Assembly (NCBI GenBank): GCA_944363635.1
Contig: CALVUP010000002.1
Coordinates: forward strand, 21,974-85,973
Length of the DNA stretch: 64,000 bases
From: an uncultured Bacilli bacterium
Lineage (GTDB): Bacteria; Bacillota_I; Bacilli_A; RF39; UBA660
Direction: 5' to 3'
Under the pieces are notes generated by a model that was not told where the DNA came from, ran no database searches, and was given only the letters and a program-made list of their open reading frames with translations. Of this stretch, positions 6,957-60,582 are shown one piece after another (the stretch's first letter is position 1; each line of letters opens with the position of its first letter). Made by a program: the position numbers and the translations under genes.

Positions 6957-6968
6957 AAAATCACCCAT

Positions 6969-7050
6969 AAAAAATGACGCACATAAAAATGAATTATTAA
7001 GGCTGCTACTTTCCAGTCCTGACCTGATTCTAATTATTCTTATTGCGTCT
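6969..7050 (-). ncRNA. ffs: small SRP RNA (4.5S-type, ~80 nt)
   Basis: Minus-strand read 5'-GACGCA..AUCAGGUCAGGACUGGAAAGUAGCAGCC..UGCGUC-UUUUUU closely matches SRP RNA domain IV (E. coli CAGGUCAGGUCCGGAAGGAAGCAGCC) with a GGAA tetraloop. Closing helix GACGCA/UGCGUC, 3' U-tract, and a TTGAAA-17-TATTAT promoter placing the TSS at about 7050. Confidence 0.7.
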
Positions 7051-7055
7051 TAGTT

Positions 7056-53020: not shown

Positions 53021-53098
53021 AAATAAAATTATTGATATAATAATTTCGCATTTAATTACTATGATTAATATTTAATCATGGCGGAAGGAGAGATAAGT

Positions 53099-54823: not shown

Positions 54824-55084
54824 ATGTATGAAAGTATTAAAGATAGAGTGATTGAAGTAGCCAATTATATGCTGAAAAGCAAACAAACGATTCGAGAAAT
54901 TGCTAAAAAGTTTCATATAAGTAAAAGTACGATTCATAAGGATATATCCTATCGGCTTAGATTTATCGATTATTCTTTATATGAAGAAGTAAGTAAAGTT
55001 GTTAAAGAACACAAAGATATAAGGCATATAAGAGGAGGCGAATCGACAAGAATTAAATATTTACAAAAAAGAAAAGGAAGGTAA
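54824..55084 (+). CDS. spoIIID: sporulation transcriptional regulator SpoIIID
   Basis: 86 aa. VIEVANYML..KQTIREIAKKFHISKSTIHKD and IRHIRGGESTRIKY align with B. subtilis SpoIIID; mbl immediately downstream as in B. subtilis. Confidence 0.85.
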   Translation: MYESIKDRVIEVANYMLKSKQTIREIAKKFHISKSTIHKDISYRLRFIDYSLYEEVSKVVKEHKDIRHIRGGESTRIKYLQKRKGR

Positions 55085-55089
55085 AAAAC

Positions 55090-56079
55090 ATGGCAAAAGA
55101 TATAGGAATCGATCTAGGAACTGCAAATATATTGATCTATTTAAAAGGAGAAGGCATTGTTTTAAATGAACCAAGTGTTGTGGCATTGGATGTTGAAAAC
55201 AATCGAATTCTAGCTGTAGGAAAAGAAGCAAATGCAATGTTAGGGAGAACACCAGGTAAAGTGAAAACCATCCGACCTATTAAAGATGGAGTTATTGCAG
55301 ATTTTGAGGTTACGCAAGCAATGTTAAATGAATTTATAAAAAAAATTAGTGGAAAAAAGGGACTAATACGACCAAAAATATTAATTTGTTGTCCTTCCAA
55401 TATTACACAAGTCGAAAAAAATGCGATCAAAGAGGCTGCTGAATGTACAGGAGCTAAAAAAGTATTTTTAGAAGAGGAACCAAAGGTTGCTGCCATTGGA
55501 ACGGGTATGGATATCAATACACCAAGTGCAAATATGATTGTAGATATCGGAGGAGGAACAACCGATATTGCAGTATTATCTATAGGAGGAATTGTTACTT
55601 CTTTATCAATAAAAACAGCTGGAAATACATTGGACCGAGATATTAAAAAATATATTAAACAAAAATATAAACTATTAATAGGAGATAAAACTGCAGAAAA
55701 TATAAAAATAAAAATAGGCTCTGTGCATAAACCAGATCAATCCGAACGTATGGAAGTAAAAGGCAGAAATCTAATGAGTGGACTTCCAAATACAATTGAA
55801 ATTACTTCAGAAGAAGTAGAAGAAGCAATTCGAGATAGTATCTTAGAGTTAGTAAAAGCAATCAAATCAGTCTTAGAAATCACTCCACCAGAATTATCTG
55901 CTGATATTGTGGATAAAGGATTGGTATTAACAGGCGGTGGAGCTTTAATTAATGGATTACCAGAATTGTTAGAAAAAGAGTTAAAAATACCTGTAGTTAT
56001 TGCTGAATCCCCTCTTACGAGTGTTGCTGATGGTACGGGTGTTTTATTAAATCATTTAGACTGGCTATCTTCAGAATAA
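55090..56079 (+). CDS. mbl: MreB/Mbl actin-like cell-shape protein
   Basis: MAKDIGIDLGTANILIY, 329 aa actin fold. Confidence 0.9.
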   Translation: MAKDIGIDLGTANILIYLKGEGIVLNEPSVVALDVENNRILAVGKEANAMLGRTPGKVKTIRPIKDGVIADFEVTQAMLNEFIKKISGKKGLIRPKILICCPSNITQVEKNAIKEAAECTGAKKVFLEEEPKVAAIGTGMDINTPSANMIVDIGGGTTDIAVLSIGGIVTSLSIKTAGNTLDRDIKKYIKQKYKLLIGDKTAENIKIKIGSVHKPDQSERMEVKGRNLMSGLPNTIEITSEEVEEAIRDSILELVKAIKSVLEITPPELSADIVDKGLVLTGGGALINGLPELLEKELKIPVVIAESPLTSVADGTGVLLNHLDWLSSE

Positions 56080-56140: not shown

Positions 56141-57217
56141 ATGATTTCTAAAGAAGTAATTGCAATGGGAGTCATTGTACTTGTAACTATGATTTTTAGC
56201 GCATGTATTATGCCATTTATGAAAAAAATTGCTCATCATATTGGAGCAATTGATTATCCTAGTAAAAAAGAAGGAAATAGACATATTCATCAAAAAGCAA
56301 CACCAAAATTAGGAGGCGTTGGTATTTTCCTAGCTTTTCTTTTTGGATATATGTTATTTGGGCATCATAGTATAAAAATGAATGCTATCTTAATAGGAAG
56401 TTTTATTATTGTATTAACAGGAATTATTGATGATATTAAACCGATTAAAGCATCTCAAAAATTAATTGGACAAGTTATAGCTGCTTTAATTATTGCATGC
56501 TACGGTAAAATATTATTACAAAACATATCGGCTTTTGGTTATGTAATTGATTTTGGAATATTTGCTTATCCCATTACAGTGATTTTTATTGTTGCTTGTG
56601 TCAATATCATTAATTTAATTGATGGGATTGATGGTTTAAGTGGAGGAATTTCTAGTATTTTTTATTTAACCGTTGGGATTATTTCTTTATCGCAGGCGCG
56701 CTATGGATCTTTAGAAATCCTACTTGCATTCATTATGTTAGGAGCAACACTTGGATTCTTAATTCATAATTTTAATCCAGCTTCTATATTCGCAGGAGAC
56801 TGCTCGATGTTTATGGGATTTTTAATTGCTGTTATTACTCTATTAGGATTTAAAGCCACTGCATTAACTTCATTTTTCATTCCTATTATTATATTAATCA
56901 TTCCAATATTAGATACTTGCTTTGCGATTATAAGAAGAAAACTAAAAGGAAAACCAATCTTTTCCGCAGATAAAGATCATATTCATCATCAATTAATTAA
57001 AATGAATTTATCTCAAAAAACAACAGTATTAATTATTTATTTTGTTGATCTTTTATTTGCTATTGCGACACTGATTTATGCATTAAAAGATCCAAAGATC
57101 GGAATGCTGATCTATATTGTGTTATTTGTAATTATATTAATCTTTGTTTGTAATACAAATATTATTTCTGATAAACTACCTAAAAAATTAAAGAAAATTA
57201 CGAAAACAAAAAAGTAA
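56141..57217 (+). CDS. MraY/WecA-family polyprenol-phosphate sugar-1-phosphate transferase (TagO-like)
   Basis: 10-11 TM, NIINLIDGIDGL motif. Confidence 0.65.
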   Translation: MISKEVIAMGVIVLVTMIFSACIMPFMKKIAHHIGAIDYPSKKEGNRHIHQKATPKLGGVGIFLAFLFGYMLFGHHSIKMNAILIGSFIIVLTGIIDDIKPIKASQKLIGQVIAALIIACYGKILLQNISAFGYVIDFGIFAYPITVIFIVACVNIINLIDGIDGLSGGISSIFYLTVGIISLSQARYGSLEILLAFIMLGATLGFLIHNFNPASIFAGDCSMFMGFLIAVITLLGFKATALTSFFIPIIILIIPILDTCFAIIRRKLKGKPIFSADKDHIHHQLIKMNLSQKTTVLIIYFVDLLFAIATLIYALKDPKIGMLIYIVLFVIILIFVCNTNIISDKLPKKLKKITKTKK

Positions 57218-57297
57218 TTTTTTTTATGAATAATAAATGGAAAATTATTCCAATTATGATAAAATAATATATATATAAAAGATAGAGGGGATGATAT

Positions 57298-58029
57298 ATG
57301 TTAAATTTTATAATTGGTGAAGATAACACAAAATTTTCTGCACGCACCAAACAAATCATTGAAAATTTTATGATGAATTATGATATTGAATATCATATGG
57401 ATTGCTTTCCAAATTATGGGAAGGATTTTAAAAAGGCGGCCAAAGCAGAAAGTGGATTTAAAATATATTTTCTTGATATCAAAACAGATGAAGGTTCAGG
57501 ACTTGATGCAGCTCGAATGATTCGAGAAGAACTAGATGATTGGGTATCCATTATTGTTATTATTACTTCTTATACAGAGTATAAATATGAAGCGTTAGGA
57601 AATAGATTATATTTATTAGATTTTATATCTAAGTTTGATGATTGCGAGAAAAGAATTAAAGAATGCTTAGAAATCGCTTTAAAAAATTATGATAATAGAC
57701 ATAAATCTTTAAGCTTTTCTTATAATCATATCATAAAGAAAATTGAATATAGAAACATTGTCTATATTGAAAAAGAGCAAGAGAGTAAAAGATGTATTAT
57801 CAACACAACCTATGGAGATCATTTTATAAACGATACATTAAATAATGTTTATGCAAAATTAGATAAACGCTTTATCAAAGTAAATCGAAGTTTAATTGTA
57901 AATTCTGATTTTATTAGAGAATATGATGTAAAAAATAATAAGATCATATTTTCAAATGGAACCTATACACATTTAATATCAAAAACAGGTAGAAAGGAAT
58001 TAATGAAGTATGTTGGAAGTAGTAATTAA
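57298..58029 (+). CDS. LytTR-family response regulator (AgrA/ComE-like)
   Basis: Receiver-like N-domain (FLDIKTDEGSGLDAARMI) plus C-terminal LytTR DNA-binding domain; 243 aa. Confidence 0.75.
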   Translation: MLNFIIGEDNTKFSARTKQIIENFMMNYDIEYHMDCFPNYGKDFKKAAKAESGFKIYFLDIKTDEGSGLDAARMIREELDDWVSIIVIITSYTEYKYEALGNRLYLLDFISKFDDCEKRIKECLEIALKNYDNRHKSLSFSYNHIIKKIEYRNIVYIEKEQESKRCIINTTYGDHFINDTLNNVYAKLDKRFIKVNRSLIVNSDFIREYDVKNNKIIFSNGTYTHLISKTGRKELMKYVGSSN

Positions 58030-59299
58030 ATTTTTATGTAGTTTAATTGGTTCTGTAGCCGGTATTCTAATAATCGAAAATATTTCTAAAATAAAATTTA
58101 AACTCAATTTAAAAAACATAATATTATTAATACTTTTATCAGTAATTACAACATTACAATTTAAAACAGAATATACTATAACCATATCTTTAACTGTATA
58201 TATACTTATAATAATGATATATAAATGGTTATTTAATATGAGTTATAAAAAATCTGTATTATTGGGTGGAGTAGTATTAATAATTACTTCGATGTCCGAT
58301 TTAATGTGGGCAATAATATTAAAACAATTTTTTACTAACGATCAATTAAGAGAACCAACTATTTTATTTTTAATGTTTAATATGTTAGTATATTCAAGCG
58401 CATATTTTTTATCTCATGTGTTTAATTATAAACGATTTCTAACAAAATTTATTGCCAAAACAGATAATAGTAAAATATATAGTCAGTTTATTTTTATAAT
58501 TTTAACAGTGGTTGTTTCGTGTTTAATAATATATGATATTACATCTCTTAAGATTATTGGAATGGAACAATATATAATTACATTATCTACTTTTGTTTTA
58601 ATGTTAATCCTGGTTTTGATTTATATTAAATCAAAAAACGATAATGATAAGTTACAAGAACAATTCGATTATTTATATAATTATTCTAAGAATTATGAGG
58701 ATTGGATTACCAAAGAACAATTAAATATTCATGAAAACAAAAATCAATTGATTGTATTACGCGATATGGTTAAAAAGAATGAAAAAGCGGTAAACTACAT
58801 TAATGAGATCTTGGAAGAAGATTTTGTTATAGAAGATAAATGGATTGGACAATTATCCAATATTCCAAAGGGTGGGTTAAAAGGATTATTATATTATAAA
58901 TTAATTACGATAGAAAAAGACAATCTAAACTTTTGTGTAGATATTAGTAAAAATGTTAAAACAAAGTTAAAAAAATTACAGAAAGATCAATTAAAAGATA
59001 TTAGTCATATCATTGGTATATTTATAGACAATGCGATAGAAGCTTCTGTAAATTCTAAGAAGAAAATGTTCTCTTTAGAGATTTATTGCATAAAAAAAGA
59101 ATTGAATATAGTAATTACCAATTCATTTGATGGCCAAATTGAACTTAATAAAATTAATAATAATGGATATTCTACCAAAGGAAAAGACCGTGGTAAAGGA
59201 TTGTATTTTGTCTCTAAAATAAAAGAGAAAAATCCAAATATACTTACGGAAGCACATATTATTAATAATTATTTTGTACAGAAAATTATTATAAAATAA
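58010..59299 (+). CDS. AgrC-type (HPK10) membrane sensor histidine kinase
   Basis: Six N-terminal TM helices; C-terminal GHKL ATPase with N-box FIDNAIEAS and G-box GKDRGKGLY; 429 aa; 20-nt overlap with the upstream RR gene. Confidence 0.75.
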   Translation: MLEVVIKFLCSLIGSVAGILIIENISKIKFKLNLKNIILLILLSVITTLQFKTEYTITISLTVYILIIMIYKWLFNMSYKKSVLLGGVVLIITSMSDLMWAIILKQFFTNDQLREPTILFLMFNMLVYSSAYFLSHVFNYKRFLTKFIAKTDNSKIYSQFIFIILTVVVSCLIIYDITSLKIIGMEQYIITLSTFVLMLILVLIYIKSKNDNDKLQEQFDYLYNYSKNYEDWITKEQLNIHENKNQLIVLRDMVKKNEKAVNYINEILEEDFVIEDKWIGQLSNIPKGGLKGLLYYKLITIEKDNLNFCVDISKNVKTKLKKLQKDQLKDISHIIGIFIDNAIEASVNSKKKMFSLEIYCIKKELNIVITNSFDGQIELNKINNNGYSTKGKDRGKGLYFVSKIKEKNPNILTEAHIINNYFVQKIIIK

Positions 59300-59303
59300 A
59301 AAT

Positions 59304-59337
59304 AAAACTCCTATCATCTTTGAGTTTTATTTTTTTT
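59304..59337. terminator. bidirectional terminator between the kinase gene and agrD
   Basis: AAAACTC/GAGTTTT stem followed by T-run; A-run on the other side serves the convergent agrD transcript. Confidence 0.55.
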
Positions 59338-59342
59338 ATAAT

Positions 59343-59459
59343 TTATTTGAAATAAGATGGCGCTTTGGGTTCATCAATAAAGAACCAAATACATCCCATA
59401 CTTGCTGCGGAAGTGGCTAACATCGCAACTGCAGCTAATACTTTTGCTACTTTTTTCAC
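59343..59459 (-). CDS. agrD: AgrD-like autoinducing-peptide precursor (38 aa, GTG start)
   Basis: Minus-strand ORF MKKVAKVLAAVAMLATSAASMGCIWFFIDEPKAPSYFK. Perfect RBS GGAGG 7 nt upstream of GTG. Amphipathic leader, Cys-containing core CIWFF, acidic/Pro recognition tail IDEPKAP. Lies 58 bp downstream of agrB; too short for the ORF track. Confidence 0.8.
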   Translation of the reverse strand: MKKVAKVLAAVAMLATSAASMGCIWFFIDEPKAPSYFK

Positions 59460-59517
59460 TTTACTACCTCCTACTACTATATTTATCTAAATTTATAAAA
59501 ATAAATTAGATACAAAA

Positions 59518-60105
59518 TTAAATATGTTTGTAATTCGCATAAGGCTGTTTAAACAATTTATAAAACAATGGATTAATCATAATACTTTCTAATACAAGAG
59601 CAATCAGAAATAGATTGGCTATAGAAGTATTAAAATGCATAATACAAATGAAATAGATAATAGCAATAACAATAGTAGTTATCTTTCGAATCATACGTAT
59701 TTTTTTATCTCGGAAAGGTCGCTTAACTGTATCTGCAGGTGCAAAGAAGAAATAGGAAATGATGCAACCGATAGCGATTAAACACATAATAGTTTTATTA
59801 AGTTGGATATATTGAAATAATAATGGGAATCCAATAAAGAACAAACTTGATGTAATTAAGCATTGATAACTTTTCTCTGCATGAAACCCAAACCCAGTAT
59901 ATCGAATAATATTAAATAATATTAAAGTGAAAAAAACTTCTTTTTCTATATGAAAAACAATAGCGAATAGAATAATTAGAATTAATTTTGATAAAGTTAA
60001 ATATAGTCCTTCAAGTCCATATAATAGTTTTTCTTTGTCTTCTTCAGAATAATCATTATATTTTAAAATTAAATGATAAAAATTATGAATTACTACTTTT
60101 TTCAT
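59518..60105 (-). CDS. agrB: AgrB-family membrane endopeptidase
   Basis: 195 aa multi-TM. RYTGFGFHAEKSYQC aligns with S. aureus AgrB RRHAHGAHAPSSFWC, conserving catalytic His and Cys at identical spacing. FAPADTVKRPF and ESIMINPLFYK also align. Confidence 0.85.
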   Translation of the reverse strand: MKKVVIHNFYHLILKYNDYSEEDKEKLLYGLEGLYLTLSKLILIILFAIVFHIEKEVFFTLILFNIIRYTGFGFHAEKSYQCLITSSLFFIGFPLLFQYIQLNKTIMCLIAIGCIISYFFFAPADTVKRPFRDKKIRMIRKITTIVIAIIYFICIMHFNTSIANLFLIALVLESIMINPLFYKLFKQPYANYKHI

Positions 60106-60345
60106 CTTACTACCTCTTGCATTTAAGTCTAATATAAAAACGTAATAAAAAAAGAAAAAATCTTTAAAAAAATAAAGAGTAGAACTTTTGATATAAATAA
60201 TTTACAGATAGTGAATAATGTGTTCAAAAAATGCTTTAAATTGACTATTTAAGGAAAAAACTATAGAAAGGCGTTAGCTTTGATATAATAAACATGTTCA
60301 CTCATTTAGGCCGAATAAGGAACAGAAGAATAATTAGTAAAGGAG

Positions 60346-60582
60346 ATGTGGCGAGAAGTGAGAGGTAGAGTAAAATGGTTCAATAATGAAAAGGGATATG
60401 GATTTATTGAATATAAAGAGAATGAAGATATCTTTGTTCACTATTCTGCGATCAAACAAGAAGGATACAAAACTTTGTCGGAAGGGCAATTAGTGGAGTT
60501 TAAATTGTTAGAAACAACCAAAGGATACCAAGCCTTAGATGTAACTGTAGTAAAGGATGCAGTTACAACGCCTAGTAAATAA
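60346..60582 (+). CDS. cspA: cold-shock protein (CspA family)
   Basis: [16 protein letters not shown]1 motif, FVHYSAI RNP2. Start may be GTG 60358 (MRGRVKWFN). Confidence 0.85.

Follow-up and report, generated by a model that had tools for sequence, protein, structure and literature searches.

A short GTG-initiated gene behind agrB in an uncultured gut lineage of Bacilli is very probably agrD, with signal and receptor alleles that differ between strains

A stretch of 64,000 nucleotides from an uncultured member of the Bacilli (hereafter the window) carries on its minus strand, at 59343..59459, a small open reading frame (ORF) which is very probably agrD, the second gene of an agrBD operon encoding the precursor of a cyclic thiolactone autoinducing peptide (AIP). 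This assignment draws on the ORF list and its translation, a match to the AgrD family model TIGR04223, conservation among relatives, the codon pattern and a per-position entropy profile. The product, MKKVAKVLAAVAMLATSAASMGCIWFFIDEPKAPSYFK, counts 38 amino acids and begins with a GTG codon; the ORF list gives the same place, start and length as the first-pass annotation, a reading of this DNA from its letters without database searches. On the minus strand, the leader (residues 1-22) is encoded at 59394..59459, Cys23 at 59391..59393, the variable core CIWFFI from the Cys to position +5 at 59376..59393, the Asp-Glu-Pro motif at 59367..59375, the tail KAPSYFK at 59346..59366 and the stop codon at 59343..59345.

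The signals around the ORF are those of a translated second gene. A Shine-Dalgarno sequence GGAGG (59467..59471, minus strand) stands 7 nucleotides (TAGTAAA) before the GTG at 59457..59459; read directly from the sequence, it bears out the ribosome binding site and spacing described in the first pass, and GGAG-type sites lie at comparable distances from the agrD start in relatives. The 58-nucleotide spacer between agrB and agrD (59460..59517, minus strand) folds no better than shuffled sequences (z = -0.43) and a terminator scan of it returned no terminator-like site, in agreement with the earlier claim that no terminator separates the two genes. Since the spacer lacks a terminator, co-transcription of agrB and agrD is implied.

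Conservation establishes the ORF as a real gene under selection, and one of a known kind. A scan of one genome per species yielded 24 related loci whose AgrB proteins are 45-72% identical to that of the window, and in every one of them an ORF of 38-40 amino acids follows agrB at +46..+63 nucleotides and obeys the pattern MKK..AAVAMLATGAAS-x-GC-xxxxx-[DE]EP (in L004, L006 and L014 the longest-ORF calls of agrD start further upstream). No interruption of the ORF was seen in any of the 24 genomes, nor in the strain contigs described below, nine of which span it completely while the tenth breaks off within it. The first-pass annotation had pointed to loss or frameshifting of the ORF beside a retained agrB, and to Met13 as the only conserved start, as signs against the gene, and neither was found. 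The window GTG aligns with an ATG at the same codon in relatives; the full leader is thus conserved and translated, and Met13 is not the start. Codons were compared over all pairs of the window and its three closest species-level relatives. Differences in the leader are 60 synonymous against 7 non-synonymous and those in the Asp-Glu-Pro codons 6 against none, whereas the six codons from the Cys onwards show 8 synonymous and 17 non-synonymous differences. Leader and Asp-Glu-Pro are under purifying selection and differences in the core are mostly amino-acid-changing.

The same division is seen at larger scale in the entropy profile of 137 distinct family peptides. The leader is nearly constant, with entropies below about 1 bit per position, and the Gly at -1, the Cys, the Glu at +7 and the Pro at +8 are invariant; position -3 is Ser in 134 members. 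Position +1 is highly variable (3.2 bits), Trp occupies +2 in 123 peptides, positions +3 to +5 vary again (2.3-3.4 bits, with 3.35 at +5) and +6 is Asp or Glu, so that the 137 peptides display 116 distinct cores. A constant leader, a hypervariable stretch after the Cys and an acidic tail make up the layout of staphylococcal AgrD (PMC10482373). The proposal of a single Cys followed by a hydrophobic core of the clostridial CLWFT type is in keeping with the frequent Trp at +2, as in [CLWFT] and [CPWII] (PMC12312760). In the tail of the window peptide, Glu30 and Pro31 are the invariant residues and Phe37 lies seven residues after Glu30; in Staphylococcus aureus AgrD, E34 and L41 are both required for recognition by AgrB (PMC10482373). 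The earlier likening of the acidic, Pro-containing tail to an AgrB recognition element gains from both the invariance of Glu-Pro, which also answers the question of Cys and Asp-Glu-Pro conservation raised in the first pass, and the spacing of Phe37, which is that of S. aureus Leu41.

The neighbouring genes provide the partners of an agr system. Upstream lies agrB (59518..60105, minus strand), encoding a membrane cysteine endopeptidase/cyclase of 195 amino acids (PF04647, E = 4e-30). Its His75 and Cys82, spaced i, i+7, are invariant in 24 homologues and correspond to the catalytic dyad His77/Cys84 of S. aureus AgrB (PMC10482373), so that by sequence the dyad is intact. Convergent with agrD, on the plus strand at 58010..59299, is the gene of an AgrC-like sensor histidine kinase of 429 amino acids (PF14501, a GHKL domain of the AgrC/LytS type). 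Its membrane sensor half extends over approximately residues 1-206 (58010..58627) with at least six hydrophobic segments, and the candidate phospho-acceptor His lies within NIHENKN. The preceding gene (57298..58029, plus strand) encodes an AgrA-like LytTR response regulator of 243 amino acids (PF04397, E = 7e-13). The best NCBIfam matches of kinase and regulator are the AgrC and AgrA models, respectively, both below the equivalog cut-off.

The strongest functional evidence for an agr system comes from alleles at strain level. Ten public contigs, from gut samples such as ERZ28615057 and SRR33296332, encode an AgrB 100% identical to that of the window, and across agrB, the spacer and the agrD leader they do not differ in DNA sequence either; three of them then diverge abruptly at the Cys codon. 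The window and six contigs, one of which (L034) ends within the core (CIWF), have CIWFFI-DEPKAPSYFK; the divergent contigs have CMWVFL-DEPQALKSFK (L027), CYWFLL-DEPKAPSYFK (L031) and CMWVFC-DEPRALKSFK (L033). At least four core alleles are thus found behind one identical AgrB. Sliding identity of the three divergent contigs to the window is 98-100% over SecA, HPF, the cold-shock protein (Csp), agrB and the agrD leader, drops to 57% at the agrD core, ranges between 57 and 94% along the kinase gene, with a minimum of 57-61% at 58200..58500 in the membrane sensor, and returns to 98-100% from about 57800. The result is a hypervariable allelic cassette of the species (57800..59393), which begins at the agrD Cys codon, takes in all of the kinase gene and ends in the 3' part of the regulator gene. 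Between alleles, residues 50-150 of the kinase are only 30-51% identical and residues 200-300 are 98-100% identical; the regulator protein is 98% identical. Close species behave alike: at most 2 of 5 core residues (0-2) are shared, and identity is 26-50% in the sensor half, as against 75-85% in the cytoplasmic half of the kinase and 92-99% in the neighbouring GT4 protein. Co-diversification of peptide core and receptor sensor between conserved flanks is what defines the agr specificity groups of S. aureus (PMC12312760, PMC10482373). Signal and receptor vary together here, with several alleles and one invariant AgrB, and this is the classic signature of agr pherotypes.

Two smaller points attach to these alleles. 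The divergence extends into the regulator gene at its 3' end (57800..58029, compared with L027), where DNA is 87-92% and protein 98% identical; nearly all of the changes are synonymous, which is what an imported recombination tract under strong purifying selection would be expected to show. The L033 allele (L033:3369..3485) has a second Cys at +5, the sole core difference between CMWVFC and the CMWVFL of L027, and with this additional thiol an alternative ring or a disulfide might form. A metagenome scan with the leader DNA recovered a single contig, which was already in the set, and added no pherotypes.

Comparison with AgrD families, advocated in the first pass, gave a significant result. 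TIGR04223, the NCBIfam model for AgrD family cyclic lactone autoinducer peptides, matches the peptide with 24.5 bits (curated cut-off 19, E = 2.2e-5), aligning residues 2-34 with positions 1-33 of the 38 in the profile. Several observations nevertheless weigh against the assignment to agrD. At E <= 0.01 the same model recognises little more than half of the subfamily (15 of 28 members), and the Pfam AgrD model PF05931 has no match to the window peptide even at E <= 1; the sole match in the Pfam scan of the peptide is weak and meaningless. The C-terminal tail would be short, with 10 residues if cleavage occurs before the Asp, where staphylococcal AgrD tails have 14-15 (PMC10482373). A permissive pattern for lipoprotein signals matches the leader as well, and LytTR-type direct repeats were not found in either upstream region of the window (60100..60350 and 57180..57300). 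With no such repeats there, autoinduction is unsupported and enters the model below as an assumption; an ad hoc pattern GTAWW-N15-17-GTAWW, not clear in the window, is seen in 7 of 25 upstream regions with about one expected. On the sequence models, the peptide falls within the broader AgrD family and outside the narrower, staphylococcal-type PF05931.

How the precursor may be processed can be modelled on the staphylococcal, listerial and clostridial systems. agrB and agrD would be transcribed as one unit, and the 22-residue leader, signal-peptide-like and probably amphipathic, would bring AgrD to the membrane and anchor it there. AgrB, through His75 and Cys82, would recognise the Asp-Glu-Pro tail and remove it, forming an acyl-enzyme intermediate on Cys82 that the thiol of Cys23 would attack to close the thiolactone ring. 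A second protease would then remove the leader near the invariant Ser-x-Gly-Cys. This motif suggests that the leader is cut close to the Cys and that the product is possibly a tail-less peptide; the peptides of C. perfringens and Clostridium acetobutylicum are also tail-less (PMC12312760 Table 1). Once released, the peptide would be detected by the convergently encoded AgrC-like kinase through its membrane domain, and the activated kinase would phosphorylate the LytTR regulator, through which target genes, by assumption including agrBD itself, would be reached.

The size of the ring can be approached through the register between Cys and Glu. S. aureus AgrD (Cys28, Glu34 at +6) yields a five-residue ring (PMC10482373), as does the Listeria precursor KACFMFVYEPKSP (KACFMFV-YEPKSP), with Glu at +6 and the ring CFMFV (PMC4916163). 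In the C. acetobutylicum precursor GKCVLVTLYEPKMP (GKCVLVTL-YEPKMP), Glu stands at +7 and the ring CVLVTL has six residues (PMC12312760; PMC10301443 supplement). Together these three characterised systems suggest the rule that the ring ends two residues before the conserved Glu. The window precursor GCIWFFIDEPKAP (GCIWFFI-DEPKAP) has its Glu at +7, a register common to the whole family. Because its Glu-Pro is at +7/+8 from the Cys, as in C. acetobutylicum, a ring of six residues, cyclo(Cys-Ile-Trp-Phe-Phe-Ile), appears somewhat likelier than cyclo(CIWFF). That Phe37 follows Glu30 at the distance at which Leu41 follows Glu34 in S. aureus is a further likeness of register (PMC10482373). The core CIWFF named in the first-pass annotation is thus right as to a Cys-led hydrophobic core, but its boundary probably lies one residue later, at CIWFFI followed by DEPKAP. 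The calculated [M+H]+ values of the corresponding thiolactones are 810.401 for CIWFFI and 697.317 for CIWFF; with Gly, Met-Gly or Ser-Met-Gly retained before the Cys they become 867.422, 998.463 and 1085.495 for the six-residue ring and 754.338, 885.379 and 972.411 for the ring of five.

The only serious rival to the six-residue ring is a ring of five, cyclo(CIWFF), for which AgrB would cut between Phe27 and Ile28 so that Ile28 became the first residue of the discarded tail; its chance is substantial, though clearly short of even. Among characterised peptides, rings of five residues predominate by a wide margin (PMC12312760 Table 1; PMC4916163), including those from the C-x-W-x-x cores [CLWFT] of C. 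perfringens and [CPWII] of C. difficile (PMC12312760). The commonest residues at +4 are all hydrophobic (L, I, V, F, M, A, W, Y), as is usual for ring closers, and +4 is more uniformly so than +5, which is polar in a minority of peptides (Ser in 16 of the 137). The ring-end rule itself is drawn from few cases, namely the three systems above. However, Listeria and S. aureus, with their five-residue rings, have Glu-Pro one residue closer to the Cys, and the distance in the window is exactly that of the six-ring precursor of C. acetobutylicum. In addition, +5 is as variable as the core, which fits a residue exposed to receptor-driven diversification, and clostridial precursors predicted to form six-residue rings also have Ser at +5 (CILLFS-YEPK; PMC10301443).

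A different origin for the peptide has to be considered on account of its leader. The helical hydrophobic moment of the leader, 0.38, is reached by 53 of 5000 shuffles, so that the amphipathicity claimed in the first pass is moderately supported; in character, the 22 residues resemble a signal peptide rather than the staphylococcal type of leader. The peptide might then be a tiny lipoprotein or a Sec-secreted peptide, cut by signal peptidase II before Cys23 with no involvement of AgrB. Its N-terminus does present a Lys-rich, a hydrophobic and a small-residue region ahead of Gly-Cys, a permissive PROSITE PS51257-like pattern fits the window peptide and 120 of 120 family members, and one family member weakly matches the lipoprotein model NF038029. 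A lipobox typically has Leu at -3, the position at which this family almost always has Ser, and the mature product would have only 16 residues. Left unexplained are the invariant Asp/Glu-Glu-Pro beyond a hypervariable stretch of five residues, the fixed place behind agrB in all 24 genomes, the match to the AgrD model and the co-variation of the residues after the Cys with the sensor domain of the kinase. The lipoprotein reading is very improbable and was rejected on the Glu-Pro motif, the linkage to agrB, the receptor co-variation and the Ser at -3. That the ORF is an untranslated chance frame in an AT-rich intergenic spacer is less probable still, to the point of being negligible: short frames are common locally (63 ORFs of at least 25 amino acids overlap the 9 kb around agrD, so that size alone is not beyond chance), most automated gene calls skip it and its start is not an ATG, but the conservation of frame, length and position beside a diverged AgrB and the codon data exclude it, and the strong, optimally spaced Shine-Dalgarno sequence, the match to TIGR04223 and a GC content of 38.5% in the ORF against 28.6% in the window also speak for agrD.

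The annotation status of agrD illustrates how easily such genes are lost. None of the six contigs with a complete ORF of the window's allele carries a gene call for it, and a seventh has only a partial call cut by the contig end. A collection of 15 billion proteins contains the neighbouring AgrB but not the exact window peptide; the remark that ORF callers miss the gene was therefore correct. However, it does not follow that the gene is of an unrecognised kind. A profile built from 28 related peptides retrieved 516 homologous protein clusters at E <= 0.01, and two homologues (P0029 and P0083) already bear the name "cyclic lactone autoinducer peptide [Bacilli bacterium]" from the NCBI pipeline. 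Mining for autoinducing peptides on a large scale has also been published for human microbiomes (PMC11953309). The peptide is a fresh member of the known AgrD kind, whose genes are often skipped by gene finders. Searches of PDB sequences with the peptide profile and with AgrB returned nothing relevant.

Among known systems, that of C. acetobutylicum (CA_C0079, [CVLVTL]) has the same register, CVLVTL-YEPKMP as compared with CIWFFI-DEPKAP. AgrB and AgrC-like and LytTR partners are all present in both, and there, too, agrBD and the kinase/regulator pair form two separate transcription units (PMC10301443). Unlike the window leader, which is short and signal-peptide-like, the leader of CA_C0079 is long, hydrophilic and unrelated; moreover, the two units are convergent in the window, its core has Trp at +2 and its ring size is a prediction. 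In the clostridial subgroup of the C. acetobutylicum type, a LanM-like effector gene homologous to CA_C0082 directly follows the agr cluster. No such gene is found beside the window locus, which is bordered by the genes of GT4 and MreB at one end and by those of Csp, HPF and SecA at the other. The locus therefore falls outside this subgroup, whatever the size of its ring.

The AgrD leaders of C. perfringens and C. difficile are short, Lys-rich and hydrophobic with small residues before the Cys, as here, and their cores precede His-Gln-Pro rather than x-Asp-Glu-Pro. The peptides of both species, [CLWFT] and, from AgrD1, ANST[CPWII], share with the window a Cys-x-Trp and hydrophobic core (PMC12312760 Table 1). 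In contrast to the six residues favoured here, their rings have five, and their agrBD genes lack the adjoining kinase/regulator pair (PMC12312760) that adjoins agrBD in the window. Listeria monocytogenes ([CFMFV]) has the same x-Glu-Pro-Lys-x-Pro directly after its ring, YEPKSP as against DEPKAP, but one residue fewer separates Cys from Glu-Pro, giving a five-residue ring. The listerial leader is long and hydrophilic, and the peptide is conserved across the listerial sequences recovered, unlike the hypervariable family of the window.

The resemblance to groups I-IV of S. aureus lies in the within-species alleles of core and receptor sensor half between conserved flanks (PMC10482373), in the AgrB His/Cys dyad and in the essential Glu after the ring with a hydrophobic residue seven positions later. 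The differences concern AgrB, part of which co-varies in S. aureus whereas here it is 100% identical across alleles, and gene order, which is agrBDCA there, as opposed to an agrBD unit convergent with regulator and kinase here. In addition, no RNAIII-like divergent transcript is recognisable at the window locus, the C-terminal tail is shorter and the staphylococcal Pfam AgrD model finds no match.

These comparisons leave the understanding of how agr systems work unchanged. What goes beyond the known kind is that several pherotypes share a single AgrB, that the ring probably has six residues and that the natural series of cores is unusually rich. A complete agr circuit can now be placed at a conserved core-genome position of a poorly known, uncultured gut lineage, and the natural series of cores and sensor domains served by one unchanged AgrB is a dataset on AgrB tolerance and on peptide/receptor specificity, with peptides small enough to be synthesised and tested. 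It also shows that short signal-peptide genes with non-ATG starts are systematically lost from the automated annotation of metagenome-assembled genomes. With only slightly less than an even chance, the clade may use a distinct class of AIP, defined by a six-residue ring with Trp at ring position 2, a short signal-peptide-like precursor, a fixed core-genome locus and one promiscuous AgrB that serves many diversifying peptide/receptor pairs. If so, a major force in these gut populations may be strain-level kin discrimination or cross-inhibition.

The locus is embedded in the same surroundings in all 24 species: SecA, HPF and Csp on one side of agrB and agrD, and kinase, regulator and GT4 on the other, with MreB beyond GT4. 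Given this shared position, the agr locus is an old core-genome feature of the clade. The exception in gene content is L023, which has a kinase but no response regulator gene before GT4 (L023:6080..6203). L004 carries an insert of about 1.3 kb between kinase and regulator (L004:6119..7443), and L024 has about 0.65 kb extra between agrD and kinase (L024:4763..5420). The host belongs to an uncultured, low-GC (28.6%) gut lineage of Bacilli; related records come from rabbit, goat, sheep and chicken gut and are labelled Bacilli, Mycoplasmatota, Tenericutes or Candidatus Faecimonas (Bacilli incertae sedis). Three of them, L002, L005 and L016, are titled "uncultured Muribaculaceae" (Bacteroidota) despite a Bacilli-type locus, with SecA identities to the window of 89-92% for the first two and 75% for L016. 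Their taxonomic labels or binning are probably wrong.

In front of the regulator-kinase operon lie the terminator of the preceding gene and a separate sigma-70-like promoter (TGGAAA-16-TAAAAT, with TG upstream); the agr genes consequently form two transcription units. Regulator and kinase genes overlap by 20 nucleotides (58010..58029), which suggests translational coupling, and their order, regulator before kinase, is the opposite of agrC-agrA in S. aureus. An AT-rich hairpin (59300..59340), whose core AAAACUC/GAGUUUU (59304..59328) is flanked by A/U runs, separates the convergent agrD and kinase genes. It folds much better than shuffled sequence on both strands (z = -3.8 on the minus and -5.7 on the plus strand) and looks like a bidirectional terminator-like element. 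The consensus terminator scan missed this hairpin, its GC content being too low. Among strains the loop is inverted between alike stems, AAAACTC-AAAGATGATAG-GAGTTTT in the window and AAAACTC-CTATCATCTTT-GAGTTTT in L028-L030, which points to a small hairpin-mediated inversion.

On the other side, agrB and the divergently oriented gene of the cold-shock protein are separated by a control region (60106..60345). In an alignment of the loci it shows a clade-conserved box, TTCCTTAAATAG, on the minus strand at 60245..60256, 151 nucleotides before the agrB start; the family pattern TTCC-N-TAAT-N-TG is found at -146..-181 of agrB in 22 of 25 loci, and after the box comes a run of T that closes with GG or GA. 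The box may be part of the agrB promoter or, on the divergent side, of the promoter or 5' leader of the cold-shock gene. About 100 nucleotides upstream of agrB, 17 of the 24 related genomes (L003, L004, L006, L009, L011-L022 and L024; e.g., L014:3891) conserve a tandemly repeated 10-bp sequence, TTCGACAAAATTCGACA, as a candidate regulator site. The window and its three closest relatives (L001, L002 and L005) lack this repeat, and TTCGACA occurs in the window only at 633, 8270 and 14969, places unrelated to agr.

Rfam searches, at gathering scores and at E <= 1, revealed no RNAIII-like or other RNA at the agr locus, where the only match was a sub-threshold cspA inside the csp coding region. Elsewhere in the window, the only Rfam matches are a small bacterial signal recognition particle RNA (6968..7054, minus strand, 59.3 bits) and an L31-Firmicutes ribosomal protein leader (53059..53090, plus strand), which at 35.1 bits is just over its gathering score. 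Finally, an ORF of 86 amino acids with a helix-turn-helix-like sequence (54824..55084, plus strand) directly precedes the MreB-like gene (55090..56079). We take it to resemble the sporulation regulator SpoIIID, which would be notable in a lineage labelled Mycoplasmatota or Tenericutes by submitters.

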